A stretch of 29,892 nucleotides of DNA from a virus (UHGV-0256341), one strand, 5' to 3'. Counted from the stretch's first letter, positions 941 to 29,892 are shown. Program-made: numbers and translations. Notes: a model not told the origin generated them from the sequence alone.

Positions 941-2113
941 TTACGCGCTGACCTGGCTGGCAAAATTCACCAGGTACTGATCGGTGATGCGCTGGCGCAG
1001 CATCAGATTTTCAAGTGGCGGCACTGGCGTGTAGTCATAGTCGATGGTGAGTTTTCCGGCTTTCAGCGTGTCTTTGTCGTTCACCGACTCATCCAGCCAG
1101 CAATCACCACCAATGAGATAGCCCTGACTGACCAGGCTGCGCATTTTGGCGCGGATACCTTCGATAATGTCGCGGGCCAGCGACGGGTTAAGAGGTTTAT
1201 CCACCGCCCACATGTGTGCTTCTGCAATCGTGTCCATCAGCACCTGCGCCGTGCGGGTGTAGTTTTCGAAGGCAAAGAGCGGGTCATCACTCAGGCAGCG
1301 GGAACCCCAGAAGCGGAAACCGTCTTTACGCACAAGCGTGGTGACGTCGTTCTGGTTCAGCAGACCTGCATCGGTTGCCGGGTCCTGCAGATCCCAGAAC
1401 ACATCTGCAGAAATTCCGGTGACACCGTTCACGCCCACGTTGGACAGGCTTTTGTGCCATCCGGTCTGCTCGTCAATTTTGGCGCGCAGACCAAGCGCAC
1501 GGGCGGTGGCATATGCCGTTGCTTCGGCATTCAGCACCGTGTCCCAGCCAGTAAAGTCAGGCCAGATCAGCATCCCTTCACGCTGGCTGAAGTTTTCGCG
1601 GTAAGTGATCGCCTCCTGCACTGTCTTGCAGCCATACGCTGACAGGTAAGCAAATCCACGCAGGCTTTGCGCCACGCTTAGCAACTCAGTAGCTACCGCC
1701 TTGGTGTCGTGGCCTGGCACGCCGAGAATGCGCGGTTTAACGCCGAGCTGTGACTGGGCAGATAACAGGGCTTTCATACCTGTTTTTTTACCTTCAGCAG
1801 TCACTGCGCCGATGATATTGGTCGTGGTTTCGTCTTCCGTTTCACCCTGCGGCACACGCACAACAATGGTCACGGGTTTTGCCTGGTCAGCGATGGCATC
1901 CAGCGAACGGGCCAGAGTACCTGACTCACCCGCTTTACCGCTGGCAGTCAGAACATCAGTGATCAGCACGGGTTTATTAAGAGGAAACATTTTTGCATCG
2001 GCATCATCGCCCGTGCAGACCATACCCACGATGGCGGTGCTCACCGTGGTAATAGATCGGGTGCCTTCGTTGACTTCAACAACGCGCACCCCGTGGTGGT
2101 AATCCTGAGCCAT
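941..2113 (-). CDS. FI: Contractile tail sheath protein, P2 gpFI-like
   Basis: 390 aa ORF with tail-sheath-like sequence, followed by tube gene and E. Confidence 0.9.
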
Positions 2114-2189
2114 AGTGGCGAACCTCCTGATTGGATTAGGCTTCGCCCTATGTTGAAGTGATTGTGCCTGACAAACAGCTAAGCGCAGT

Positions 2190-2207
2190 TGTGTCGTTAT
2201 TCACACA
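2190..2207 (-). promoter_or_regulatory. Putative Ogr-dependent late promoter element (TGT-N12-ACA) upstream of FI
   Basis: Sequence TGTGTCGTTATTCACACA lies about 85 bp upstream of the FI start; it matches the dyad motif described for P2 late promoters. Confidence 0.35.
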
Positions 2208-2255
2208 AAATGACGGTATTTGTCTACTTGCAGGGATAATCAAAATAATGCTGAT

Positions 2256-2828
2256 TCAGGGGGATTCATTGCTCTTATTTGCCGGAAATTTTCTATAAAT
2301 GGTAGAAACGCCTACATCAAAAATCAGTGCAATACGCTGTCTTGATTCTCCGGCCTCGAGTAAACGCCCAATCTGTGCCCACTGTTCGGTGGTCAACTTA
2401 GGACGGCGTCCACCTACTCTGCCTTTGGCACGAGCTGCAGCCAGCCCTGCCCTGGTACGTTCAACTATCAGTTCGCGTTCCATTTCAGCCAGGGCACCCA
2501 TGACATGAAAAAAGAAACGGCCCATTGGGGTACTGGTATCAATACTGTCAGTCAGGCTTCTGAAATTCACACCACGCTGGCGTAACTCTTCTATCAGCGT
2601 AACAAGATGCCGCATACTGCGCCCCAACCTGTCCAGCTTCCAGACAACCAGCGTGTCTCCTGCCGATAGTGTCCTGAGCAGTTTTTTCAGCCCCGGTCTG
2701 TCGGACTTAGTGCCGCTGATTTTATCCTCAAAAATCCGCTCACATCCCGCGCAGTTCAGCGCACTACGTTGCAAATCGGTGTTCTGGTCATTTGTTGACA
2801 CGCGTACATAGCCAATAAGCATGATCAT
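2256..2828 (-). CDS. Serine recombinase, DNA invertase of the Hin/Gin/Pin/Cin family
   Basis: 190 aa; N-terminal GYVRVSTNDQ with the catalytic serine context, LVVWKLDRLGRS, MGRFFFHVMGALAEMERELIVERT, and a C-terminal helix-turn-helix. Very close to the remembered Hin sequence. Confidence 0.95.
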   Translation of the reverse strand: MIMLIGYVRVSTNDQNTDLQRSALNCAGCERIFEDKISGTKSDRPGLKKLLRTLSAGDTLVVWKLDRLGRSMRHLVTLIEELRQRGVNFRSLTDSIDTSTPMGRFFFHVMGALAEMERELIVERTRAGLAAARAKGRVGGRRPKLTTEQWAQIGRLLEAGESRQRIALIFDVGVSTIYRKFPANKSNESP

Positions 2829-2849
2829 CTCCTTGAATAAAAATCGGGG

Positions 2850-3527
2850 ATGATGCCAGTTAGTCGTAATCGCTGCATTTTCTTAAACGTTGGTTTGGGA
2901 GATACAAGCGGATACGTGGGACGCCGGCTGAGTACCCGGGCTTTCGCGTCATCAGGTACGTATACCCCATCACCAGAAACAAAACGGATCAGGGTCACAA
3001 TAACGGGCGGCGGTGGCGGAGGGGGTGGCTGCCAGGCTATATCCAGTAACGAAACGTTTTTCGGTGCTGGCGGTGGGGCCGGAGGGACAGTAATCACCAT
3101 ACTGACCCCGACACAGAATAGTTATCCTGTCACTATCGGCGCAGGTGGGGCCGGCGGCGTTGGTGCGACGAACGGCCTCAAGGGCGGTGATAGCTCGTTC
3201 GGATCGGTAATAGCCCCTGGTGGTGAAGGCGGCGGAAAAGTAGGAGTCACAAACACAAACGGCGGTAACGGAGGCGTACCGAATATTGGCGATATCCGCA
3301 TCACTGGTGGAGATGGAGGCGACGGTCAGTCCGGGAATATCAGCGTCAGCGGTGAAGGCGGTGCATCGTACTGGGGAGGCGGTGGACGTGCAGGCGCTGG
3401 CGGTGGCGTTAGAGGCAGGGCATTTGGTTCAGGCGGAGGTGGTGCATACGATGCAGGTTATAGCGGAACCAGTATGACGGGCGGGAAAGGTGCTGATGGG
3501 GTTTGTATTATCGAGGAGTTTGCATAA
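2850..3527 (+). CDS. Alternative (currently unexpressed) tail-fibre C-terminal variable domain, Gly-rich
   Basis: ORF reads outward from the crossover site with GGT-TTG-GGA in the same frame as in H; glycine-rich repeats. It would only be expressed as a fusion to the constant part of H after inversion, so the listed Met start is probably not used. Confidence 0.65.
   Translation: MMPVSRNRCIFLNVGLGDTSGYVGRRLSTRAFASSGTYTPSPETKRIRVTITGGGGGGGGCQAISSNETFFGAGGGAGGTVITILTPTQNSYPVTIGAGGAGGVGATNGLKGGDSSFGSVIAPGGEGGGKVGVTNTNGGNGGVPNIGDIRITGGDGGDGQSGNISVSGEGGASYWGGGGRAGAGGGVRGRAFGSGGGGAYDAGYSGTSMTGGKGADGVCIIEEFA
2878..2903 (+). other. Invertase crossover site (hix/gix-like), distal copy next to the invertase gene
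   Basis: TTTTCTTAAACGTTGGTTTGGGAGAT, an imperfect 12-2-12 dyad. It shares the 13-mer TTGGTTTGGGAGA with an inverted copy inside the tail-fibre gene at 4673..4698. Confidence 0.6.
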
Positions 3528-3937
3528 TGAATGCGTCATATGCAGTTATTGAAAATGGGATGGTTGTGAATGTCATTGTCTGGGATGGCGAGGATGAATT
3601 CACTGTGCCGGATAATCTGCAGCTCATTAATATTTCTGATATCAGTGAGCAGCCCGGAATCGGCTGGGCGTATTCAGACGGGGTATTTACTGCGCCGCTC
3701 CCTCCGGAACGTTCTCATGATGAACTGGTAGCTGACGCTGAACAGAAAAAACAGTCGTTGATAGACGCAGCAATGGTCAATATCAGCGTGATTCAGTTAA
3801 AGCTGCAGGCCGGGCGGAAGCTGACGCAGGCAGAAACCACCCGACTTAACGCCGTGCTGGATTACATTGACGCGGTGACGGCAACAGATACCAGCACTGC
3901 GCCGGATGTCATCTGGCCTGAACTGCCGGAGGCGTAG
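3527..3937 (+). CDS. Tail fibre assembly chaperone, alternative copy (U'-like)
   Basis: The six-frame ORF is 3503..3937; the likely start is the ATG at 3527 right after the stop of the upstream variable domain. Its C-terminal region resembles that of the minus-strand copy (DTSxAPDxxWPxxP). Confidence 0.75.
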   Translation: MNASYAVIENGMVVNVIVWDGEDEFTVPDNLQLINISDISEQPGIGWAYSDGVFTAPLPPERSHDELVADAEQKKQSLIDAAMVNISVIQLKLQAGRKLTQAETTRLNAVLDYIDAVTATDTSTAPDVIWPELPEA

Positions 3938-4352
3938 GCCATTCAATATCTGGAGCACTGGAGGTATCAACCAGTTCCAGTGCGTCCAGATAATCCAGCC
4001 ACAAATTATATTGCACCAGTTCCTCACCTTTCAGACGACCAATTGATGCTTTACCTGGCCATTGTTTACTGTTGATGTATTCGTTGGCCTGATTAATCAA
4101 TTGCTGCTTTTTAGTTTCGGCTGATGCAATTTGTTCTTCACGTGTTGGTGGAGGAATATCTACCCATGCAGGCAGTCCATCTTCTCCGACACATCTGTAT
4201 TTTCCTTCTGGTGGTGTATCATAGAAATATTCCCTGAAAATTACTTCGTCTATATCAACACCTTTTTCTTCAGGCCACTCACCTTTTTCAACATAAAGAG
4301 ACTTAAGTTCGTAAGGATATGCCAGGTTGTTTACGTACAGATATTTCATCAT
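3909..4352 (-). CDS. G: Tail fibre assembly chaperone, P2 gpG-like, currently expressed copy
   Basis: 147 aa directly downstream of H with overlapping stop/start; conserved C-terminal motif shared with the plus-strand copy. Confidence 0.8.
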   Translation of the reverse strand: MMKYLYVNNLAYPYELKSLYVEKGEWPEEKGVDIDEVIFREYFYDTPPEGKYRCVGEDGLPAWVDIPPPTREEQIASAETKKQQLINQANEYINSKQWPGKASIGRLKGEELVQYNLWLDYLDALELVDTSSAPDIEWPTPPAVQAR

Positions 4353-5734
4353 TACCAGCCCTTAGCGAAAAACGCACCACCTTCAAGACCATAATTGCAG
4401 TGAGCTATGAAGCCGGTAGTGCTCCAGTTGGTCGCCCCCCACATATTCCCACCCCCGAAACCACCATCGCACACAATTACAATGCCCGGTGTCTGTGTAA
4501 ATGGAATCGGGAATGAAACATTGGCGGATACAGGCCCGTGTTCACTAGGAAAACTAATTCGTCCCCACTGTTCAATTGAACCATCTGGCATTTTTCGCCA
4601 GCCTGAACCTGATGCATATGATGACATATCAGGTATCTGATTTTCCCCAGTTCCCACATTCCGTTTTGCCGCTTCTCCCAAACCAAGGTATGCGAGAAGA
4701 CCAGCTACATCCTTTCCACTCAAATTAGTCAGCGTATTGTCCAACGGTTGTTTACCTGCCAGCGCATTAAGCATTGTCGTGGCAAAGTTCGGGTCATTCC
4801 CCAGCGCCGCAGCCAGTTCGTTCAGTGTATCCAGTGCAGCAGGTGCAGACCCCACCATTGCCGCAATTGCCGATTTCACAAAAGCCGTGGTGGCAATCTG
4901 TGTATTGTTAACCGACTGTGCGGCAGTGGGGGCTGTTGGCGTTCCGGTGAATGCCGGACTTAACAGCGGCGCTTTCAGTGCCAGCGCATTGTTAATGGTG
5001 GTACTGAATTTCGGGTCATTATTAATGGCAGCGGCAATTTCTTTCATCGTATCCAGTGTGGCTGGCGCACCATTAATAAGGGCCATCAGTGCCGCCTGAA
5101 CAAACGCGGTGGTCGCAATCTGCGTGGTGTTATTCCCCTCCGCTGGCGTTGGCGCTTTGGGTGTTCCGGTCAATGTCGGGCTTTCTTTGGGTGCATACTG
5201 TGAATGCGGGTCCGGTGCGGCAAGATGTTTTGCCATCTTATCATCCACGAACACCTTCAGCTCCAGTACCTTGTCATCCACATACTTGCGGGTTGCCAGC
5301 ACGACGGCAGGGTCGATTTTCAGGGTGATATTGTCCGTGCTGCTGGTAATCAGCACCATGCGCACGGTCTGGGTACGCCCACTGCCTTCAGCCAGTTGCG
5401 GCTTATAGCTTTCCGGGCAGTTTCCCACGGCAATCAATGCCCCGGACTCATCAAACAGGCCCACTTCACGTATCCACCAACCGCCCTCATTTTCAGGGAT
5501 TACCTGTTCAGCAATAATCTGGCTACTGTTCTGCGGGTCGATATAGAGCATATTCAGCGCAGCCCGGCGTTTCTCATTCACCAGTGCAGTCTGCTTTGCA
5601 TCCGGCGTTGGCAATACTCCGCCGCCATCGCCGACCGCCATATGGGTAATTTTTAAAGGCACACCGAGCGCGGCGGCGCTGGCAAGTTTCGCCGCGCCAA
5701 TATCCGTCAGCAGGGTATAAAATTTTGTGCTCAT
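4352..5734 (-). CDS. H: Tail fibre protein, P2 gpH-like (constant N-terminal part plus current variable C-terminus)
   Basis: 460 aa with repeated TQIATTAFV and NDP(K/N)F motifs and the [18 protein letters not shown] block that I recall from P2 H. The crossover site lies in-frame at the LGLGE codons. Confidence 0.9.
4673..4698 (-). other. Invertase crossover site (hix/gix-like), proximal copy inside H
   Basis: Minus strand reads TTCTCGCATACCTTGGTTTGGGAGAA, an imperfect 12-2-12 dyad with the same central TT and right half as the site at 2878..2903. Confidence 0.6.
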
Positions 5735-6336
5735 GGATTCACTCTCATTGTGTCAATAACATGGACCGCCCCGCCTTCATGCGCGGTGCCACCGGAAATA
5801 ATTGTTTCGTTGATATACGGATAGATCGTGATTTCTTCGCCAAGATAGCTGGCGGCTCCCACCCAATGCGGGCCGCTGGTCTGCAGGTTGATGGACATGC
5901 CGATCATGTGACGGCTGCATGGTTTGGCATCGCTTATCAGTCGCTCAAGTTCCAGATAGGTATCTTCAGTGATGCCCTGGTCCTGCACGCCGATATCCAG
6001 ACGAAACGTGCCCGGTGTCTCTCCGGTCTGCCACCACTCAATAATGCGGATCAGAAAGCCGAACGGCTCCACCACCCGCCGCACGGCACTGGTGGTCCCT
6101 TTATGCTGATGAATATAAAAAGCATCCTTCACCACCTGGCGCTTGACACTTTCTGTCCAGTCCTCGTCCCAGCGATCCACAGAGAACGCCCAGGCGAGAT
6201 AAGGCAGGAAACTGACCGGACAGGTTGCCGGATTCCACAAGTCACGAAGCGGCACCTGCAGATCAGAAATCCCGCTGCAGGTTTGCGCCAGTCGGCGCTC
6301 CAGTGGTGTTGAACCCGGTGGCAGCAGACTATTCAT
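5731..6336 (-). CDS. I: Baseplate assembly protein, P2 gpI-like
   Basis: 201 aa between J and H in the conserved order. Confidence 0.8.
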
Positions 6337-8261: not shown

Positions 8262-9068
8262 ATGAGTGTTATGAATCCAATAAGTTCTAATATATTTAAT
8301 GCTGAATTTTTAAACACCCCGGCAGCGGCACTTGCCGCATGGATTTCCATTATTGGAGCTGTTATAACTTTGGTGACGATAGTTATAAGAGCACTATTCA
8401 AATATAGAAAATCTCATGATGTAATTTTGAAAAAATCAGGAATACCTGCGTTTATATTAAATTTTTTTCTTATACGAATATCATTAAAAAGGCTGCCTAC
8501 TATCACATGGGCTGAAAAATCAATCACGGTTCTCTTTTCACTTCTTTTTTTGTGTGCAATTTATATTTTTGGTCCAGTTTTCATCCAAGCCATTAGAACC
8601 CCACCAAATAGCACATTGCTTTATTGGATAAAGTCCGGTGAATCATTTTATATGTCAAAAAAACTGGCGACTGCAGCTACAATATTAACCACTCCTGATT
8701 GGGAAATATCAAAAGATGATTGCGAAGAGTCATCCTCTGCCAGTACAGAGAAGTACAAATCATTAACTATCGAACATAAAGAAATTCTTTGTAAACTACT
8801 AACCACTGATGAAGGGAATACTTACATTGATGAAGAAGTCAAGAATTTCGTTAAAGACAAATTCTTTATCTATTCCTTTGCCCCAACAACCATATTTATT
8901 CTATTATGGATTTCTTTGGGTTTTATACTGACCATTCACTATTCTAAAAAAGTTAGGAAATATATTCTGACTGAACAAAAAAATGCAATTCATTGGGCAT
9001 ATGGTGAATTCAAGACAGAAGGAATCTATTCAATATATCACGAGTTAGAACGTAAGACTCACCATTAA
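8262..9068 (+). CDS. AT-rich moron encoding a multi-pass membrane protein of unknown function
   Basis: 268 aa with several hydrophobic helices; the region from about 8160 to 9070 is visibly lower in GC than the flanking phage genes; opposite strand to the late operon; sits at the S/V junction where P2 has orf30. Confidence 0.7.
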   Translation: MSVMNPISSNIFNAEFLNTPAAALAAWISIIGAVITLVTIVIRALFKYRKSHDVILKKSGIPAFILNFFLIRISLKRLPTITWAEKSITVLFSLLFLCAIYIFGPVFIQAIRTPPNSTLLYWIKSGESFYMSKKLATAATILTTPDWEISKDDCEESSSASTEKYKSLTIEHKEILCKLLTTDEGNTYIDEEVKNFVKDKFFIYSFAPTTIFILLWISLGFILTIHYSKKVRKYILTEQKNAIHWAYGEFKTEGIYSIYHELERKTHH

Positions 9069-17384: not shown

Positions 17385-17402
17385 GAAGACCATTAGGTCT
17401 TC
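17385..17402. terminator. Hairpin between convergent Q and retron RT (possible bidirectional terminator)
   Basis: GAAGACC-ATTA-GGTCTTC stem-loop with T-rich flank; the RT stop codon lies inside the stem. Confidence 0.45.
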
Positions 17403-18355
17403 GCTTTATTTAAAGGGTTCTTTCCATATTTTTTTTCTAATTTGCTAATATAAGTTATTAATCTTCTATGGCTTTTTGAATCCACACTTAAAATAAATGA
17501 CAACCATCCCCTAACGTGTTCTATCTCAGAAGACTTACCGCAAAATATATGATGTATCTTTGCTCTAATTTCTTTATATTTTTCTCTACCTATCCCAACT
17601 TTCTCTTGTGAAATAACTAAACCTGTAACTTTCCTCTGACTACGAGGCCCACTAATACAAGTTTTTTTTGAGTTAATAACCAATCCTTCACTTGGGATTA
17701 TAGAAAATAAAAAATCACGTGCTTTAACAACCTTTTTCATAGACTGTGCAGATAAGGTGAGATCATCGGCATATCTCGTATATATCAAGCCCCGACTACC
17801 TGCATAACCCTGAATACGATAATCAAGTTTAGAACATATTAGATTAGCTAATTTAGGTGATGATGGAGCACCTTGTGGTAGCAGATTTTTATAACAACAT
17901 ATTTTTGTCAAAACTGAAGATATTAGTCGATTATAACCAAGAGAATGGAACACTCCAAAAACTTTGTTAGCAGTTAAACTTGGGAAAAAATCCTCCAAAT
18001 CAATATTCAGTATAAAGTTTGCCCCAATATGCGGGGTAGCATTATTCAAAATAGATTGGTGCTTTTCAAATCCAATAGAAAAAGGAGATGACGACAGTTT
18101 ATCTAAAATGTTACGTAGAACCCATCCTTGTAAGGCTTTAAGTTCTCGAGAAGGTTGGTAAATGGTTCTCATTCTCTTCTCTGGGCCTTTCTTTTCTACA
18201 GTGTAGATCCTATAGCGAAAATCAGCTGTATAGATTAACAACCGAAGTGTTTCAACAGATATGCGAGTCGCCTTAGACATGTCATGCAAATTGTTCATGA
18301 CAGGTAGGCCGAGATTTCTCAATCTAAAAGTGTTCAAATATTCAGCGGATTTCAT
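17393..18355 (-). CDS. ret: Retron-type reverse transcriptase (matches retron Ec86/Eco1 RT from memory)
   Basis: 320 aa with retron hallmarks: NAxxH (NATPH), LEDFFPS, PQGAPSSPKLANL, catalytic YADD and the VTG motif. It lies immediately 3' of an msr-msd element. Confidence 0.95.
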   Translation of the reverse strand: MKSAEYLNTFRLRNLGLPVMNNLHDMSKATRISVETLRLLIYTADFRYRIYTVEKKGPEKRMRTIYQPSRELKALQGWVLRNILDKLSSSPFSIGFEKHQSILNNATPHIGANFILNIDLEDFFPSLTANKVFGVFHSLGYNRLISSVLTKICCYKNLLPQGAPSSPKLANLICSKLDYRIQGYAGSRGLIYTRYADDLTLSAQSMKKVVKARDFLFSIIPSEGLVINSKKTCISGPRSQRKVTGLVISQEKVGIGREKYKEIRAKIHHIFCGKSSEIEHVRGWLSFILSVDSKSHRRLITYISKLEKKYGKNPLNKAKT

Positions 18356-18361
18356 GAAAGT

Positions 18362-18530
18362 TGCGCACCCTTACGTCAGAAAAAACGGGTTTCCTGGTTG
18401 GCTCGGAGAGCATCAGGCGATGCTCTCCGTTCCAACAAGGAAAACAGACAGTAACTCAGATTCAATGCAGGATGCCGAAACAACATCCAGAGGTTGACCT
18501 TAATGATAAACCTCTCGCTAAGGGTGCGCA
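18362..18530 (-). ncRNA. msr-msd: Retron msr-msd non-coding RNA (msDNA template)
   Basis: Perfect 12-bp terminal inverted repeats (TGCGCACCCTTA ... TAAGGGTGCGCA on the minus strand) flank a long internal palindrome (GGAGAGCATC...GATGCTCTCC); the sequence matches the Ec86 ncRNA as I remember it. Confidence 0.9.
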
Positions 18531-19441
18531 TACGGAATCTTATCATAGTTAAATGTTGATTTTCTACGGTTTTCAAAATTCATAATCTCAAGCCGCAATC
18601 GGTCAAGTGTCTTTCTATCAAAGACGCTCCTAACATAGCTAGCCCCCAAAGCAGTGACCTGATAACCATCAGTCATTTGAAGTATTTTTCGTTCATTTAT
18701 TAGACGAGAAACAACGGATCTAACAATAATTTTAGATAAAACATCATCTTGCTTTATCGCTTTAAAAGCTAGTTCACACAGTGTGCGGTAGTTGACACTA
18801 TCCAGTAAATAGATACAAGGCAATAGAAACCGCTCTGCGTATAATATATTTCCAATATCTTTTGATACTTTATTTTCTTTCCTAACCTTCTTAATAGATG
18901 CCATTAATTTTTTATATAATCGTAATTTTCTGGCAACATCAATGGATGAATCACACATTTCTTTTAGTTCATTTGAACTACAACGCAAAACAGATTTTGA
19001 ATTAAACTTACGCAACAGGCGAACAGGACCATAGTTAATAAAGCTACGTTTTGATTTAAATTTTGCATCTTGAATGCAAATCAACTTTCTCCTTAAGTTT
19101 TCATTATTAGAGAACGCACCAAGCTCTGTGAAAGACCCCGGACTTTCAGGAAATAAAATTATTACATCGACAGCTTCAGCCAGAATATTTTCTAAACTTA
19201 AAAGGCTATGCTGCCCTTGACCAGCCAAAAGATCATCAAATAGATCTTCTGGATAAAATATATCAACATCACTGAACTTTGCTAAAAATTGTGATAATTG
19301 ATGACGCCAAGATTGATGATTAGCAACGTCACCACCACATAGAAAAATGGTTATTTTAATATTAGCTCCTCGATAGAAGCCTTTCTTTGTGAGATGTCCT
19401 ATAAGCTGTTGTTGCTGCTCATCGGTAAATTTTTTATTCAT
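18518..19441 (-). CDS. Retron effector protein (NDT-like / DNA-binding type, as in retron Eco1)
   Basis: 307 aa encoded immediately upstream of msr-msd in the same operon. The N-terminal half has a Rossmann-like glycine-rich pattern consistent with a nucleoside deoxyribosyltransferase-like fold; the C-terminal half is basic. Confidence 0.8.
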   Translation of the reverse strand: MNKKFTDEQQQQLIGHLTKKGFYRGANIKITIFLCGGDVANHQSWRHQLSQFLAKFSDVDIFYPEDLFDDLLAGQGQHSLLSLENILAEAVDVIILFPESPGSFTELGAFSNNENLRRKLICIQDAKFKSKRSFINYGPVRLLRKFNSKSVLRCSSNELKEMCDSSIDVARKLRLYKKLMASIKKVRKENKVSKDIGNILYAERFLLPCIYLLDSVNYRTLCELAFKAIKQDDVLSKIIVRSVVSRLINERKILQMTDGYQVTALGASYVRSVFDRKTLDRLRLEIMNFENRRKSTFNYDKIPYAHP

Positions 19442-19464
19442 AATCTCCCCGCTTTTTTTTCTAC

Positions 19465-19493
19465 TTTATACATCAAGTTATGAATAGATCCAA
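19465..19493 (-). promoter_or_regulatory. Putative sigma70 promoter of the retron operon
   Basis: Minus strand has TTGGAT, a 17-bp spacer, then TATAAA, followed by a GGGGAGA ribosome-binding site before the effector ATG. Confidence 0.3.
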
Positions 19494-19514
19494 TCTCCAT
19501 ACCACATGGCGCGC

Positions 19515-19534
19515 GCTCGTATCCCCGCCACGCC
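19515..19534 (-). other. Putative cos site (cohesive-end core) of the P2-like phage
   Basis: Minus strand reads GGCGTGGCGGGGATACGAGC, similar to the P2/186 cohesive end (GGCGAGGCGGGGAAAGCAC in P2) as I recall it. Position is on the Q side of the genome as in P2. Confidence 0.45.
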
Positions 19535-19578
19535 TGCCCGCTTTGTGTAGTGGTTTTCATGCACCTGCATGACATAAG

Positions 19579-19603
19579 CAAAAGCCCGCCAGCTCTGGCG
19601 GGC
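19579..19603 (-). terminator. Rho-independent terminator downstream of the HNH gene
   Basis: GC-rich perfect inverted repeat GCCCGCCAG/CTGGCGGGC followed on the minus strand by TTTTGCTT. Confidence 0.5.
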
Positions 19604-19716
19604 ATCAGCAAAAACGATCCTCAAACGATCATGCGATTTCATGCGGCATAGACATGCGTTGGCAAAAATGTACGAAATACTCAGCTTATAGGAAATGGTC
19701 TTTTTCCAACCTCCAG

Positions 19717-20436
19717 TTAGCCAAAGCAGAAACCAATATTGCAATTTGAAACTCCACAGTTGTGAAATTGATGTGGACCTACTCTTAGCTTGTGTTCGTC
19801 TCCTACAATCCGAGTCCCCTTAACCAACATATCTAATCTTTCCACAATCAATCTTTCAGGCGCATCAACTTTAATAATTAAACGAGGACCTTTCCTTTTT
19901 TCTATAATAGTTATTCTAGGACCGACAACCTGAACATCCCAATGCCTTGCACTACAAACCCACTCATTCTTAATTAATTCAAGATTAACAATACCTTGAC
20001 TATCGTAAAATTTACCCGAAATAAGAAAAGCATTATTTTCTTTTTCAATGGTTAACAATGGCTCATTTTGAAACATTATTGGTACAGTACAGGATTCAAA
20101 CGTCGCACCACCAAATATTATTGTTGGATGCCTATCAGAAAAGTCCAATATATCGGCCACATTCCCTTTTTGTAAGGCTGCAGGAGATTCCATTGCTTTA
20201 ATTATTTTCTCTTTAGAGTAAAGACGTTTCGTTACTTTCGCATGGCACGTAGGACAAAGTAGTGCTATTGCATTTGGAGAGTGCTCCTTTGCATCAGCGT
20301 ATGTGGGAATTACATGCTCATACTCAACAATGGGAGAAGCACAAACAACGCAACCGAAGCCACAGCGCTGCCTTACCTCCAGTTTTACAGGTTCAGGAAT
20401 TGTTCTAGATAACCCATGCTTGTTAATAGTTGTCAT
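19717..20436 (-). CDS. HNH-endonuclease-domain protein with a C-terminal domain of unknown function
   Basis: 239 aa; N-terminal CGFGCVVC ... EYEHVIP ... NAIALLCPTCH matches the HNH zinc-finger nuclease pattern. AT-rich gene located between cos and replication gene A, where P2 has old/tin. Confidence 0.75.
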   Translation of the reverse strand: MTTINKHGLSRTIPEPVKLEVRQRCGFGCVVCASPIVEYEHVIPTYADAKEHSPNAIALLCPTCHAKVTKRLYSKEKIIKAMESPAALQKGNVADILDFSDRHPTIIFGGATFESCTVPIMFQNEPLLTIEKENNAFLISGKFYDSQGIVNLELIKNEWVCSARHWDVQVVGPRITIIEKRKGPRLIIKVDAPERLIVERLDMLVKGTRIVGDEHKLRVGPHQFHNCGVSNCNIGFCFG

Positions 20437-21144: not shown

Positions 21145-23559
21145 TTAATACAGGTTTCGCCACTTATCATCTTCCTGCAAACGCTGGTTCCGATAGAAGA
21201 TACGCAGGCCTGCTCCTGACGGAATACTGCCGCCGCGAAGGAGTAAATCGACCTCTTTCTCGCTGCCATCAAATCCTCTGGACTTCAGTTCATAGACGAG
21301 CTGCTGTCGCTGATGGTCTGTAATTCGCTGTTTGTAGTCTTTACGCCGTTTCGGTTTCACCAGGCGTAACCTTGCAGCTAGTTCCCGGCGCTCTTTTTTG
21401 CTCATACTGTGCAGGTAATCGTGCAACGCCTTGTCATCCATGCGGGTAATGTCCGTCCTGGTATCCCCATCAGCTGATTTGTCTTTCCCTTGTTGGTTCA
21501 AATTTTCAGCAAGGGGACAGTTATTGCCACGAGTCCAAGGGGCGCAAGCGCCCTGGTCGGCTGCCGCCTCCTGAACGTCAACGGCTTTACGAACCATTTT
21601 CCACTTCACTGCATGAGTGCAGATCTTGCCCTCTGCAATGGGTGACCAGATGCCATAAATACGAATGCCGTGATCGCCATAGGCGGTCGGCTCTTCGTTG
21701 ATTTCATAAGCGGTTCTGATGAGGTGATATTTACGGGGAACCAGTACGCCGCCCTGCTTCATGATGTAGGTGGCAAAACAACCAGCATCAGCAGCAGCCA
21801 GGATGGCATCAAGGCGCGGGTTATCCAGTACCGGCGCACCTGCTTTTTTGTCCCCCTTTTGCCTTACCGCCTGACCAGCCAGCAATCGCAGTTCACGGTA
21901 AGCCTGACGCCCCGGAATGCCAAAGAAGCGGAATTGCTGAACACGATGCAAAGACGCCCAGGCATTCACGTATTCAGCGTTATCACGCAGAGATTTACCC
22001 GTTTCCTTGCTGATCTCGCCAGCCAGACCACGCCCGTCAATGTTCTTACTGATGTATTTCGCTATGTAGCTTGTCGGCGTTCCTTTGCGCGGGTTAATCA
22101 GCTCAGACTTAAAGCGCGGCCCCGTGTTATTGCCCAGCTCCTCGCGGTCTTCACGGATAGCAAACTTACGCAACAATGCTGTAATGGCGCGGCGGTCTTT
22201 TTTGCGCATGAAACACAACAGGTGCCAGTGAACTGTGCCGTCGTGATGCGGCTCAGCCACCCGCACGCCATACCAGCGCAACCCGGCTTTGTGCATCGCC
22301 TTACGAAATGCAGCAAACATACCGACCAGATAATCGCTGCTTTGTCTTACCGTCGCATTTGTCCAGGTCGGATTGGGCCTGCCGTTATTTAGCGTGGAAT
22401 GGAAACGTGACGGACAGGTGATGGTGTAGAAAACGGCGCAGTCACCGCGCATTTCCGCGATAAGCTCCAGACCTTTAACACAGGCCATCATCTCATTGCG
22501 GCGATGCGCAGGGTTGCTGCTGCTGGCGTTTACCACATCCTCCATGTCTAGCGTGTCGCCGTCTTCGTTCACCAGTTCATGAGAACGGAAAAACTCCAGC
22601 GACTTACGGCGCTGCTCACGTTTATGCAACACGGCTTCATAGCTGACATAGGGAGATGCTTTTTTGCTGACAAGGCAGACAGCACGCAACTGCTCTTCCC
22701 GCCATTCGCAACGCATCTTCCATAATTTCCGATACCACCAGTCGGCGCACAACATACGCGCCAGCGAACCCGGAATGAGTTCATAGGGCACGGGTTTACG
22801 GCGGTTTCTTTTCCGACGGAGTTGCTCAAACGCAGGCGGGATGACATCCAGACGCAGGGTTTCCGCTGCCACCCTTTCCCATGTATTGCGGATTTCTTCT
22901 GGCTTAACGTCATCGGTGGCATACAAATCGCCACAAGCGGCATCAAGGCACATACTCATATGCGCAGCTACCAGGGTGGACAGGCGTTTCACCTGATCCT
23001 GACTCATTTCAGGCAGGATCAGCAGGCCGTCCAGCCCTTCATGGCTTGCCATAAAGCGAAAAGATGCAGATAGCTGACTGTCGCGTACATGCTCCAGTCG
23101 TTCCAGACATGGCTTAATCGTCTCACGTAAATAGCGGGAATAAGCCTTTGGCCTGCCCAGGCTGCTGAAGTATTCAATACGTTGCATCAGCGGCTTGCTG
23201 ATATGGGAAGGCTGGGCGTTGACGTCCGCCAGAATGACCATATCCGGATTAAAACGCTGCTGCTCATGCGCCAGCTTTGCCCGACTAATGAGCTTATCCT
23301 GTTCCATTTCGCGCTGGACAGGATCACGGGATTCATTAAAGAAATAACGCTCCCAGACCTGATCACTCAGCGCCTCACGGCGCAGCTGTTCCTGCTCGTT
23401 ATCGGCAGCGTACAGAGTGATCAGGTTTGAAAGCGTAGAAACCGGCGCAACTTCCACCGGGTCCAGATAAGGGTTAATGGCCTTTTTCGGGCTGTTCCAT
23501 GAGAACGATGCGGCAGCTTCGTTAAAGCCGCAGCAGTTGTTCATATCGGCATGACTCAT
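21145..23559 (-). CDS. A: Replication initiation endonuclease, P2 gpA-like (rolling-circle initiator)
   Basis: 804 aa, the largest early gene; start overlaps the stop of the upstream methyltransferase gene. Confidence 0.85.
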
Positions 23560-24413
23560 GCATGTACTCCGTACACGGCAGAACTATCCACGCCACGCGA
23601 ATAATCAAATCCCACCCAGCAGCGCGGCCCGGAAACAGCAATGATTTCTGTTGCTGATTTACCCTCGCCAGCTGCCACACCGATGCTGCGTTTTGCCTTG
23701 ATGTAGTGGTGAGTAAAATTGCGATACAGCGAACGGATCAGGGATGTGTCACTGTTAGAAACAATGACCGGATGTCCTTCTGATGACCGATGTTCAAGAA
23801 CAGATGCCAGGTGATACTGGTCATCTTCAGTGAAGCCGTCAGTGTGATAGCCGGAAAACGTACCGTCATACGGCGGATCGCAATACACCACATCCCCCGC
23901 CTTCAACATCGCCAGCGTTTCATCAAAGCTGGCGCAGATAAACGTTGCTCGCTGGGCCTTTTCTGCAAATGCGCGAATTTCTTTTTCAGGGAAATACGGA
24001 TTTTTATAATTACCGTAGGGAATGTTGAAATGCCCGCTCTTGTTATAGCGACATAAACCACGGTAACCGTGACGATTGAGATACAGGAAATATACCGCTT
24101 TCATGAAATCAGTAATTTCAGTTGAGTAATTAAACTCCTGCCTTATGTTGTAATAAGCCATCTCCCTGTTTGCGATCTCAAATAAAACTCTGGCGCGAGA
24201 TATAAACGATTCACAATCAGCGGCAACCTTTTTATAGAGGTTGATTAAATCAGGATTAATATCCGCAACCAGATAGCTGGGATAATCCGTCTCCATCATC
24301 ACAGCACAGGAACCCGCGAAAGGTTCAACCAGTCGCGGGCCAGCAGGAAGATGTTTTTTTAGTTCGGACATTATGGCAGTTTTATTTCCCGCCCATTTCA
24401 GGATGGTGCTCAT
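23556..24413 (-). CDS. DNA adenine methyltransferase (Dam-like, N6-adenine)
   Basis: Motif I FAGSC and motif IV DPPY are present. Start taken at the internal Met of [11 protein letters not shown], which abuts the TraR-like stop; the longer ORF starts at 24473. Confidence 0.85.
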
Positions 24414-24637
24414 ACAGCACCTCCGTTGTAATGTTTGCCTTTCAGCTCTGCGATTTCCTGACAGGTAATGCAAAGCTGCACACCCGGAATGGCACGGCGG
24501 CGTGCTGGCGTAATTGGCGCTTCACACTCAATGCAAAGCACGCGGGACACGCCCGGCGTTTTGGCACGGGCAGCACGGATATGGCGTTGGCGTTCTTCTT
24601 CAACGCGCTGCTGTACGAGATCCATTGCATCAGCCAT
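24410..24637 (-). CDS. DksA/TraR-family C4 zinc-finger protein
   Basis: 75 aa with CxxC ... CxxC (CIECEAP ... CITCQ) and a coiled N-terminus. Confidence 0.7.
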   Translation of the reverse strand: MADAMDLVQQRVEEERQRHIRAARAKTPGVSRVLCIECEAPITPARRRAIPGVQLCITCQEIAELKGKHYNGGAV

Positions 24638-25279: not shown

Positions 25280-25476
25280 TTGTTCCCCCGTTTTTTCGTA
25301 GATAGTTCTGCCAGCAATTCATCTTGTGAACGGCACGGATGCCAGCGTTTACCATCCTCCCCCATGATCCAGCCGTGACCCGCTGAATGAATCTGCGCCC
25401 TGAATTCTGGTAAAAAACATTATCGTAAATTACCATTTCTTTCAACAGCTTACTAGTAAACAAGAAGTTAGCCTCC

Positions 25477-27162: not shown

Positions 27163-27274
27163 AACTGAAGTTGCCCTGAAAATGAAATTTTTTTGCACAA
27201 CCGCAGAACTTTTCCGCAGGGCATCAGTCTTAATTAGTGCCACTGCTTTTCTTTGATGTCCCCATTTTGTGGAG

Positions 27275-27320
27275 CCCATCAACCCCGCCATTTCGGTTCA
27301 AGGTTGATGGGTTTTTTGTT
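27275..27320 (+). terminator. Putative rho-independent terminator
   Basis: CCCATCAACC ... GGTTGATGGG stem followed by TTTTTTGTT. Confidence 0.4.
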
Positions 27321-28807: not shown

Positions 28808-29289
28808 GACAGCAGCCCTCCCACCGTTTTACTGATATCACTTAAGGCAGACGTTGCCGTGTCCTGCAGATTATTCAGTTGCGCACTGAGATCACCGAAC
28901 ATATCGGACAGGGATTCATCCACCCGTTTGAGCGACAGGGTGAACTCAATCCGGCGCGGCATACCGTCGCGGAAAAACTCCGTTTTAGTCTGATTCAGTC
29001 CCTCAATCACATACATGCCGTAAATCGTGCCGCTGCCTTCAATCAGGGGCCATGCTTTCCCCTGTTCTGCCATCTGCTCCAGTGCCAGCAACGACAGCCT
29101 GCCGCCTGTTATCTCCGGCATAAGAACACCGGAAAGCGTCAGCATGTCGTTTTCCGGTCCCAGAAACTGCGTGGACGGACGTCGGTTTACCCGACTGTTT
29201 GCCGCATGTCGCCAGCTGCGTTGATACTGCAGTTCCTGATACGGAACGGTGCGCAGCATAAACACGTACAATCCCAGCACCATCATCAT
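28804..29289 (-). CDS. U: Tail protein U, P2 gpU-like
   Basis: 161 aa between T and D. Confidence 0.8.
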   Translation of the reverse strand: MMMVLGLYVFMLRTVPYQELQYQRSWRHAANSRVNRRPSTQFLGPENDMLTLSGVLMPEITGGRLSLLALEQMAEQGKAWPLIEGSGTIYGMYVIEGLNQTKTEFFRDGMPRRIEFTLSLKRVDESLSDMFGDLSAQLNNLQDTATSALSDISKTVGGLLS

Positions 29290-29892
29290 GCGTCGTATCC
29301 CCCCTGATCGCTGTAGTTACTCCTGGCTTTTGCCTTCAGCCTGCGTTCACGTTCATCAAGCTGGCGTGCCACCTCCCGCGCAATATCCTGCGCACTTTGT
29401 CCTGGCTGCGTCTGAATGATGATCTGCGTCGGTGCCTCAATCCGTTGAACGAGCGGCACAGTGGCTGCGCGACTCACAATTGCTTCTCCACCTTTCGCGG
29501 GAAGTGCCAAAGGGTGCAACGGTGGAAGCTCTGCTGGCGCGGCAGCAACGCCCATCATTCCGGCAACAACGGCAGCCAGTGCAGCTGTATTTCTCCGGCT
29601 GGTCACATTTGCCGGGCCGTTAACAATTTCCGGCCCGTTTTCACCGACGATGCCAAACTGCCCGCGCGGGATATACCCGCCGCTGTCATACATCCCCGCA
29701 AAGCCATATCCCCATGATGGAAAACCACCCGATGGCATCATCACTTTGCCGTCTGCATTCACCGTCGCAGGTTGCTGACGCGTCACGCTTTCCGGTAGTT
29801 TTGCCTTTGCGGCCTCTTTACTGACAATGCCGAGTTTCTCCAGCAACCAGGAAACGCCGGATTTCAGGGAGTCCAGCGGATGCATGACCATA
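29286..29892 (-). CDS. T: Tail tape measure protein, P2 gpT-like, C-terminal part only (gene runs off right edge)
   Basis: Open frame to the window edge with Ala/Gly/Pro-rich sequence; directly upstream of U. Confidence 0.7.
   Translation of the reverse strand, partial: MVMHPLDSLKSGVSWLLEKLGIVSKEAAKAKLPESVTRQQPATVNADGKVMMPSGGFPSWGYGFAGMYDSGGYIPRGQFGIVGENGPEIVNGPANVTSRRNTAALAAVVAGMMGVAAAPAELPPLHPLALPAKGGEAIVSRAATVPLVQRIEAPTQIIIQTQPGQSAQDIAREVARQLDERERRLKAKARSNYSDQGGYDA

Follow-up and report, generated by a model that had tools for sequence, protein, structure and literature searches.

The viral sequence UHGV-0256341 (29,892 nucleotides, read 5' to 3' on one strand and referred to here as the window) belongs to a P2-like Escherichia coli prophage, of which it is the late-gene region. 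The part of interest, positions 2,256 to 5,734, runs from a gene for a DNA invertase to the tail-fibre gene H and contains two 26-bp crossover sites, one next to the invertase gene and the other inside H, which bound an invertible segment (Table 1). The four open reading frames (ORFs) between the recombinase gene and the constant part of H form two convergent pairs, each made of a fibre tip and its assembly chaperone. As a whole, the locus is very probably a two-state, Pin-type tail-fibre host-range switch. An earlier note on this DNA had described a Hin/Gin-family invertase beside a segment of about 1.8 kb, and the ORF, its Pfam domains and the segment length of 1,797 bp confirm that description.

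The two crossover sites are mutually inverted, an orientation that the same note had claimed and that was upheld on re-examination. Each consists of two 12-bp half-sites around an identical central dinucleotide (TT/AA), i.e., the inverted 26-bp sites with a shared 2-bp core that are found in the Hin/Gin/Cin/Pin class. They make up the longest inverted repeat within 2100-5800 (arms 2878-2902 and 4674-4698) and have in common the exact 13-mer TTGGTTTGGGAGA, at 2890-2902 on the plus strand and 4674-4686 on the minus strand. No further copy of this 13-mer was found in the whole window, even allowing 2 mismatches, nor was there a third site anywhere in it at 7 or fewer mismatches from either 26-mer. 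The sites are closely similar to crossover sites of proven function: compared with the e14 element of E. coli K-12, the invertase-proximal one has 2 mismatches in 26 positions to the pinE-proximal site and the H-internal one 3 in 26 to the stfP-internal site, and the e14 crossover repeat TTGGTTTGGGAGAAGG, derived from sequenced inversion products, includes the same 13-mer (PMC12529663).

The position of the H-internal site is that expected for an exchange of fibre ends, since the crossover falls at the boundary between the constant and the variable parts of the fibre, both tips are in frame with it and the chaperones lie on opposite strands. Both ORFs read GGT-TTG-GGA in frame at their site (e.g., ...FLNVGLGDTS), as had been claimed. 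The two chaperone genes, Tfa and Tfa', converge with a 29-bp overlap, and in both pairs the chaperone ATG overlaps the stop codon of its tip (TAATG). When 2890-4686 was inverted in silico, H stayed in frame and went from 460 to 561 amino acids (aa), keeping its 349-aa constant part and exchanging the 111-aa gp53-like tip for a 212-aa glycine-rich tip followed by the second chaperone. This agrees with the earlier proposal that inversion swaps about 100 residues of H for about 210 and brings in the other assembly chaperone, both small ORFs of the segment being Caudo_TAP tail-fibre assembly proteins. The constant part of H is 49% identical to P2 gpH over residues 1-358. With regard to the tips, the gp53-like one shows weak sequence similarity to the R2-pyocin tail-fibre structures 6ct8 and 6cl6, and a sequence search of the glycine-rich one against solved structures gave no homologue at E<=1. 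The latter contains the Pfam domain Gly_rich_2 (PF21722, E=1.6e-14) and, because it matches the extreme C-terminal ends of the PHROG tail-fibre families 6202 and 454, its ORF is a genuine fibre end and not junk. It is fused to H in the related loci L002, L003 and L011.

Table 1. Features of the invertible tail-fibre locus of UHGV-0256341, followed by other annotated features of the window
Feature	Position	Strand	Details
DNA invertase gene	2256-2822	minus	188 aa from ATG at 2822, starts MLIGYVRVS
Putative recombinational (Fis) enhancer	2733-2804	minus	invertase gene nt 19-90
Candidate 15-bp G...C enhancer cores	2787-2801 and 2738-2752		invertase gene nt 22-36 and 71-85
Fixed leader, short and lying outside the segment	2850-2889	plus	in-frame ATGs at 2850 and 2853
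Glycine-rich ORF including leader	2850-3527	plus	
Invertase-proximal 26-bp crossover site	2878-2903		TTTTCTTAAACG-TT-GGTTTGGGAGAT, core dinucleotide 2890-2891
Invertible segment	2890-4686		1,797 bp, both core dinucleotides counted
Alternative H C-terminus (Sv'), currently silent	2892-3527	plus	211-212 aa past the crossover, glycine-rich
Chaperone of the glycine-rich tip (Tfa')	3527-3937	plus	136 aa; Pfam Caudo_TAP, E=2.3e-21; PHROG 188
Chaperone of the expressed tip (Tfa, gpG equivalent)	3909-4352	minus	147 aa; Caudo_TAP, E=2.1e-33; PHROG 188
Variable H C-terminus now expressed (Sv)	4352-4684	minus	111 aa; Pfam Gp53-like_C, E=2e-6
Crossover site inside H	4673-4698		TTCTCCCAAACC-AA-GGTATGCGAGAA, core dinucleotide 4685-4686
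Constant part of H	4687-5734	minus	349 aa, ends ...LAYLGLG; Phage_tail_fib N-terminal domain, E=1.1e-64
Whole tail-fibre gene H, present state	4352-5734	minus	460 aa
Gene E	59-361	minus	
Tail tube gene FII	416-931	minus	
Tail sheath gene FI	941-2113	minus	
Low-GC (0.36) ORF	8262-9068	plus	268 aa; Pfam DUF6216; flanked by baseplate gene V and by morphogenesis gene S, strand opposite
Type II-A retron reverse transcriptase	17393-18355		PADLOC RT_II-A, E=7e-128
NDT-type effector	18518-19441		E=3e-94
HNH-domain protein	19717-20436		
Dam-type N6-adenine methyltransferase	23556-24473	minus	Pfam MethyltransfD12, E=1.5e-76; adjoins gpA
Small Cys4 zinc-finger ORF (CIEC...CITC)	24410-24637	minus	TraR/DksA-like by eye only
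RybB small RNA gene	27242-27320	plus	Rfam RF00110, 105 bits; between ybjL and the ogr end of the prophage

The invertase ORF spans 2256-2828 on the minus strand and offers two in-frame start codons, of which the ATG at 2822 is likely the one used; the upstream ATG at 2828 would give an alternative product of 190 aa. The protein is built like the small serine recombinases of the Hin/Gin/Cin/Pin class, with a catalytic domain (Pfam Resolvase, E=2.7e-53), a serine nucleophile and a C-terminal helix-turn-helix domain (HTH_7, E=1.5e-15), and it matches PHROG 125, 'DNA invertase' (E=3e-100). In protein alignments it shows 85% identity with PinE and 73% with Gin, the catalytic residues Ser9 and Arg7 being invariant among them, and 186 of its 188 residues (99%) are the same in the invertase of a P2-like prophage of E. 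coli ST131 that is described below. Furthermore, K46, K47 and R50 align with K47, R48 and K51 of Hin, the basic residues of the invertase subclass; these three residues have been described by McLean et al. as conserved in enhancer-dependent invertases only (PMC3798978). Transcription of the gene points away from the invertible segment, as in gin and pinE, and 55 bp separate it from the nearer crossover site.

By homology, the 5' end of the invertase gene likely holds a Fis enhancer as well, in which case inversion would presumably depend on Fis. The P1 reference genome annotates an 'enhancer of Cin-mediated C-segment inversion' at nt 19-90 of cin, and the same stretch of the window aligns to it without gaps, with 55 of 72 positions identical to cin, 63 to pinE and 70 to the ST131 gene. 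Looking for such an enhancer had been suggested in the earlier note, and the outcome of this check, a gapless alignment to an annotated enhancer, is positive but not conclusive. The candidate cores within the stretch were placed using as a lead the core positions of Hin. The sole corroboration of these Hin positions comes from the spacer motifs quoted for the Hin enhancer, ATTTA and TAATG (PMC3798978), where the window reads ATTTG...TAGTG between the candidate cores. The cores are ~49 bp apart and the centre of the proximal one is ~96 bp from the crossover, the spacing that separates hixL from the proximal Fis site of Hin being ~100 bp (PMC3798978).

That a segment of this kind flips is seen in relatives of the prophage. 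In E. coli O25b:H4 ST131 (assembly GCF_001874485.1, the two copies being L008 and L009), one P2-like prophage is present twice, in the chromosome (CP015085) and in a 29.5-kb extrachromosomal record (CP015088), and these copies are collinear save for an inverted stretch at 3791-5653, with the alignment overlaps falling inside the 26-bp sites. The left (invertase-proximal) site of this prophage is identical to that of the window at 25 of 26 positions and the H-internal one at all 26. The extrachromosomal record, which carries several frameshifts, is probably a minority-orientation or excised-phage contig and not a plasmid. Across a set of 5,426 complete E. coli genomes, the native and the in-silico-inverted constructs found equally good best matches, each in many genomes at 77% coverage, the uncovered rest corresponding to a different second cassette. 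Both junction types are common in this set: a junction census with 162-nt probes placed the gp53-like cassette next to the H constant part, where it is expressed, in 392 genomes and next to the invertase side, where it is silent, in 733. Strain 1297KP has the predicted recombinant junction itself: its annotated tail protein has exactly the predicted 561 aa and is 92% identical, with no gaps, to the predicted flipped H. The prophage of 1297KP likewise adjoins ybjL. Taken together, the two orientations in ST131, the 392 and 733 junctions and the 561-aa H of 1297KP support the host-range switch that the earlier note had proposed. The particular pairing of cassettes beside a P2-type H is uncommon: EC102 is the only one of these genomes to have it, with an invertase pseudogene. 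A search of the complete E. coli genomes for the native arrangement gave no match of >=99% identity that extended over most of the query.

The same segment also occurs in another kind of prophage. Positions 2885-4689 of the window are 99.9% identical to 4001-5805 of an e14-like prophage of E. coli strain 127 (L004), which is in the opposite expression state, with the glycine-rich tip fused to stfP and the gp53-like tip beside a truncated recombinase. Both ends of this near-identical stretch fall within the 26-bp sites; the invertase flank is only 82% identical and the fibre shafts, H and StfP, are unrelated. These limits suggest that the two cassettes passed together, and recently, from one prophage to another, unrelated one via the crossover sites. 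Segment exchange through crossover sites is an old idea in the field, and the segment shared with the e14-like prophage illustrates cleanly a modular exchange that has these sites as its limits.

On these grounds, the switch would operate as follows. Dimers of the serine invertase would bind the two 26-bp sites and, on the model of Hin, Gin and Cin, form a synapse at a Fis-bound enhancer within the initial ~90 nt of their own gene; cutting at the central TT/AA dinucleotide, a 180-degree rotation and religation would then invert the 1,797 bp. With the site at the boundary between the constant shaft of 349 aa and the tip, and with both cassettes reading GLG in frame, one of two late products would be made. 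Late transcription of the V-W-J-I-H operon in the orientation of the window would yield H with the 111-aa gp53-like tip together with its chaperone and, in the flipped orientation, H with the 212-aa glycine-rich tip and the other chaperone. If the two tips recognize different receptors, as they presumably do, a population of lysogens would release particles of two receptor specificities.

Several points weigh against this interpretation. The window is a single sequence in one orientation, so that we infer flipping in its own strain. Its invertase differs from the ST131 enzyme at N20S and I184S, the codon of the former falling inside the putative enhancer, and a single inner base sets its left site apart from that of ST131. 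The exact cassette pair stands beside an intact invertase in none of the complete E. coli genomes. As to the enhancer, a scan with the Fis consensus (GNNYRNNWNNYRNNC) was non-discriminating, scoring the distal candidate 15/15 and missing the proximal one (Fis sites are degenerate), and synonymous-site conservation, examined because the stretch also encodes a conserved protein, showed a weak positive trend in 5 of 6 pairs with p between 0.03 and 0.73. Finally, the window has no int, cI or cII, and at 25380|25381 there is a joint that is unexplained, so that a defective prophage or a rearrangement of the sequence may be involved. Such a defect would not stop flipping, but it could make host-range switching irrelevant in this strain.

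Would the switch then mainly serve the lysogen? In that scenario, which we regard as doubtful, the invertase-side cassette would be made as a free tip protein that blocks the receptors of other phages. The two in-frame ATGs of the leader lie outside the segment and would give this cassette a start codon of its own in both orientations, and equivalent starts are annotated for stfE of K-12 and for the invertase-proximal coding sequences (CDSs) of L008 and L009. There is also a precedent in e14, in which inversion of the homologous P segment is reported to create StfE2, a protein that blocks the adsorption of T2 (Kirigo et al. 2025, PMC12529663). By analogy with it, the product might be a free receptor-binding tip, 225 aa long as the segment now lies and ~125 aa long after inversion, that masks a surface receptor against other phages, a proposal that we hold to be just as unlikely. 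On the other side, the 55-bp spacer between the invertase gene and the site showed no promoter-like site beyond what chance would give, and promoter and terminator counts over 2100-5900 were no higher than in shuffled sequences; the Shine-Dalgarno context of the starts is poor, and the full P2 structural module is intact around the switch, which fits a role in the virion. Both functions are nonetheless compatible and, if the lysogen did profit in this way, a single inversion would toggle the host range of the virion and the exclusion spectrum of the lysogen together.

Somewhat less probable still is that the locus is a frozen relic, i.e., that its parts look intact and the segment no longer flips in this strain, the gp53-like tip being effectively fixed for lack of invertase expression or through N20S, a change in the enhancer or a defect of the prophage. 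Decay of such switches is common among the relatives, with an invertase pseudogene in EC102, 1297KP and strain 127 and a deleted invertase, leaving the glycine-rich tip fixed, in the P2-like prophages L002 and L003; the missing int, cI and cII point the same way. Against it, all elements (invertase, two sites, two tips and two chaperones) are uninterrupted in the window, its invertase is 99% and its sites 25-26/26 identical to those of the ST131 system, of which either orientation was caught, and sites of this sort can be acted on in trans by related Pin enzymes (PMC12529663).

A system with more than two states, of the shufflon or Min type, or a diversification of the fibre by the reverse transcriptase encoded at 17393-18355, as in diversity-generating retroelements (DGRs), is very improbable. 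A three-site, four-state version does exist in a P2-like prophage of enteropathogenic E. coli (EPEC; PMC4272514), but the searches described above found only two sites window-wide. A shufflon or Min-like system needs at least three sites, and true shufflons use the tyrosine recombinase Rci, here there being two sites and a serine enzyme; the reverse transcriptase, for its part, is that of a type II-A retron with an NDT effector and lies 12 kb away. That the inverted repeat is a chance match beside an unrelated invertase is a negligible prospect as well: the 13-mer repeat by itself is weakly significant, an exact one having arisen in 33 of 500 shuffles (6.6%) of the 3.7-kb region, but chance is excluded because the sites match known 26-bp crossover sites and real inversion breakpoints in a relative, and they lie at an in-frame boundary.

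The two-state switch is embedded in a complete P2-type module, that of the P2-like phages (Peduoviridae), which comprises the capsid genes Q, P, O and N, lysis genes, R, S, V-W-J-I-H, FI, FII, E, T, U, D and gpA, with Pfam support from P2 capsid, GpR, Phage_tail_S, Tail_P2_I, GPA, GpU and GPD. H is followed on the minus strand by I, J, W and V, and FI, FII and E were assigned by position and by the matching annotation in L001. At the joint 25380|25381, the homology to phage (DUF5347 and a fil-like gene, inside which the early region breaks off) stops at 25380 and the host ybjM-ybjL intergenic region begins at 25381; beyond the joint follow ybjL, RybB, ogr, D, U and T, the last with its final 201 codons, genes that represent the other end of the same prophage type. 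The first letters of the window lie just past where T and E start (the ends concerned being 1-60 and 29286-29892), and the normal order is ybjL-[ogr...int]-rcdA. It looks like a unit of ~32 kb joined head to tail, be it by tandem duplication, as an aberrant excision circle or through misassembly, and a 30-mer across the joint had no match in the complete E. coli genomes or in IMG/VR, the GTDB representatives and the JGI metagenomes. The joint leaves the anatomy of the switch unaffected and bears on whether this copy still makes phage. The position of the RybB gene, with ybjL on one side and the ogr end on the other, places the attachment site next to it.

The window carries accessory genes too. 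A low-GC cargo (~0.38) at 17393-20436 sits just past the portal gene Q, which is the old/tin position in P2, and consists of the retron reverse transcriptase, the effector and the HNH-domain protein of Table 1; a retron msr/msd RNA was not detected at the Rfam gathering score. The DUF6216 ORF, which had no match in PADLOC or PHROG and is replaced by only ~70 bp in L001, L008 and L009, looks like a moron.

Pin/Gin/Cin-type invertible tail-fibre segments are textbook material (Mu, P1, e14), and in principle nothing about the locus is new. Systems of this kind are known, inversion having been published for P2-like prophages in particular (PMC4272514, PMC7953296), and a DNA invertase plus two assembly proteins feature in the annotation of many P2-like phage genomes on deposit. 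Its interest is rather practical. For annotation, a 'partial' glycine-rich CDS of this sort is a functional alternative exon of H and not a pseudogene; for assembly, mixed orientations can yield extra contigs, as in the ST131 case; and, for host-range prediction and the engineering of phages or tailocins, the locus provides a natural pair of interchangeable tips with matched chaperones.

Compared with canonical P2 (H-G-fun(Z)-FI), the window shares the structural module and the N-terminal ~360 residues of H, but P2 has no invertase and a single chaperone, and its reference genome has fun(Z) in the gap between G and FI, as the earlier note had stated. The P2 gene H contains a single gix-like relic, TTATCGAATATC-TC-GGTTTACAGGAA (L012 1358-1383), which is 23/26 identical to gix of Mu and sits at the constant/variable boundary. 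Gin with the G segment of Mu and Cin with the C segment of P1 belong to the same mechanism class, with S/U opposed to S'/U', the constant part outside the segment and an enhancer in the 5' end of the invertase gene. They differ in that gix reads TTATCCAAAACC-TC-GGTTTACAGGAA, with a TC/GA core, in that both segments are longer (3-4.2 kb) and, in the case of P1, in that transcription of cin runs toward the segment and the 3' end of this gene is overlapped by cixL.

Closer in their carrier are the P2-like prophages of EPEC E2348/69 and Fels-2, in which a Pin-homologous invertase likewise adjoins an invertible tail-fibre C-terminus. Goldberg et al. found, in two P2-like prophages of E2348/69, coexisting orientations verified by polymerase chain reaction, one locus being two-state and the other, with three sites as opposed to the two of the window, four-state (PMC4272514); in Fels-2, from Salmonella LT2/LT7, fin adjoins an invertible fibre end that provides alternative C-termini on identical N-termini (PMC7953296). 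The cassette contents of both systems are probably different from those of the window. Salmonella and Felsduovirus records were among the DNA matches to the window. The ST131 prophage shares with it the gene order from FI to H and the gp53-like cassette with its chaperone, but its second cassette is another tip, not glycine-rich, with a 200-aa chaperone. The e14 element of K-12 (pinE, stfP-tfaP/tfaE-stfE), for its part, has the same layout, i.e., constant part, site, tip and chaperone, chaperone and tip, site and invertase, and its sites, at 23/26 and 24/26 identity to those of the window, also have the 13-mer and the AA/TT core in common with them. Its cassettes are mostly different, with ~325 bp of the chaperones aligning at 85%, and the carrier differs as well, the switch of the window being borne not by an e14 element but by a complete P2-type myovirus module with a gpH fibre.

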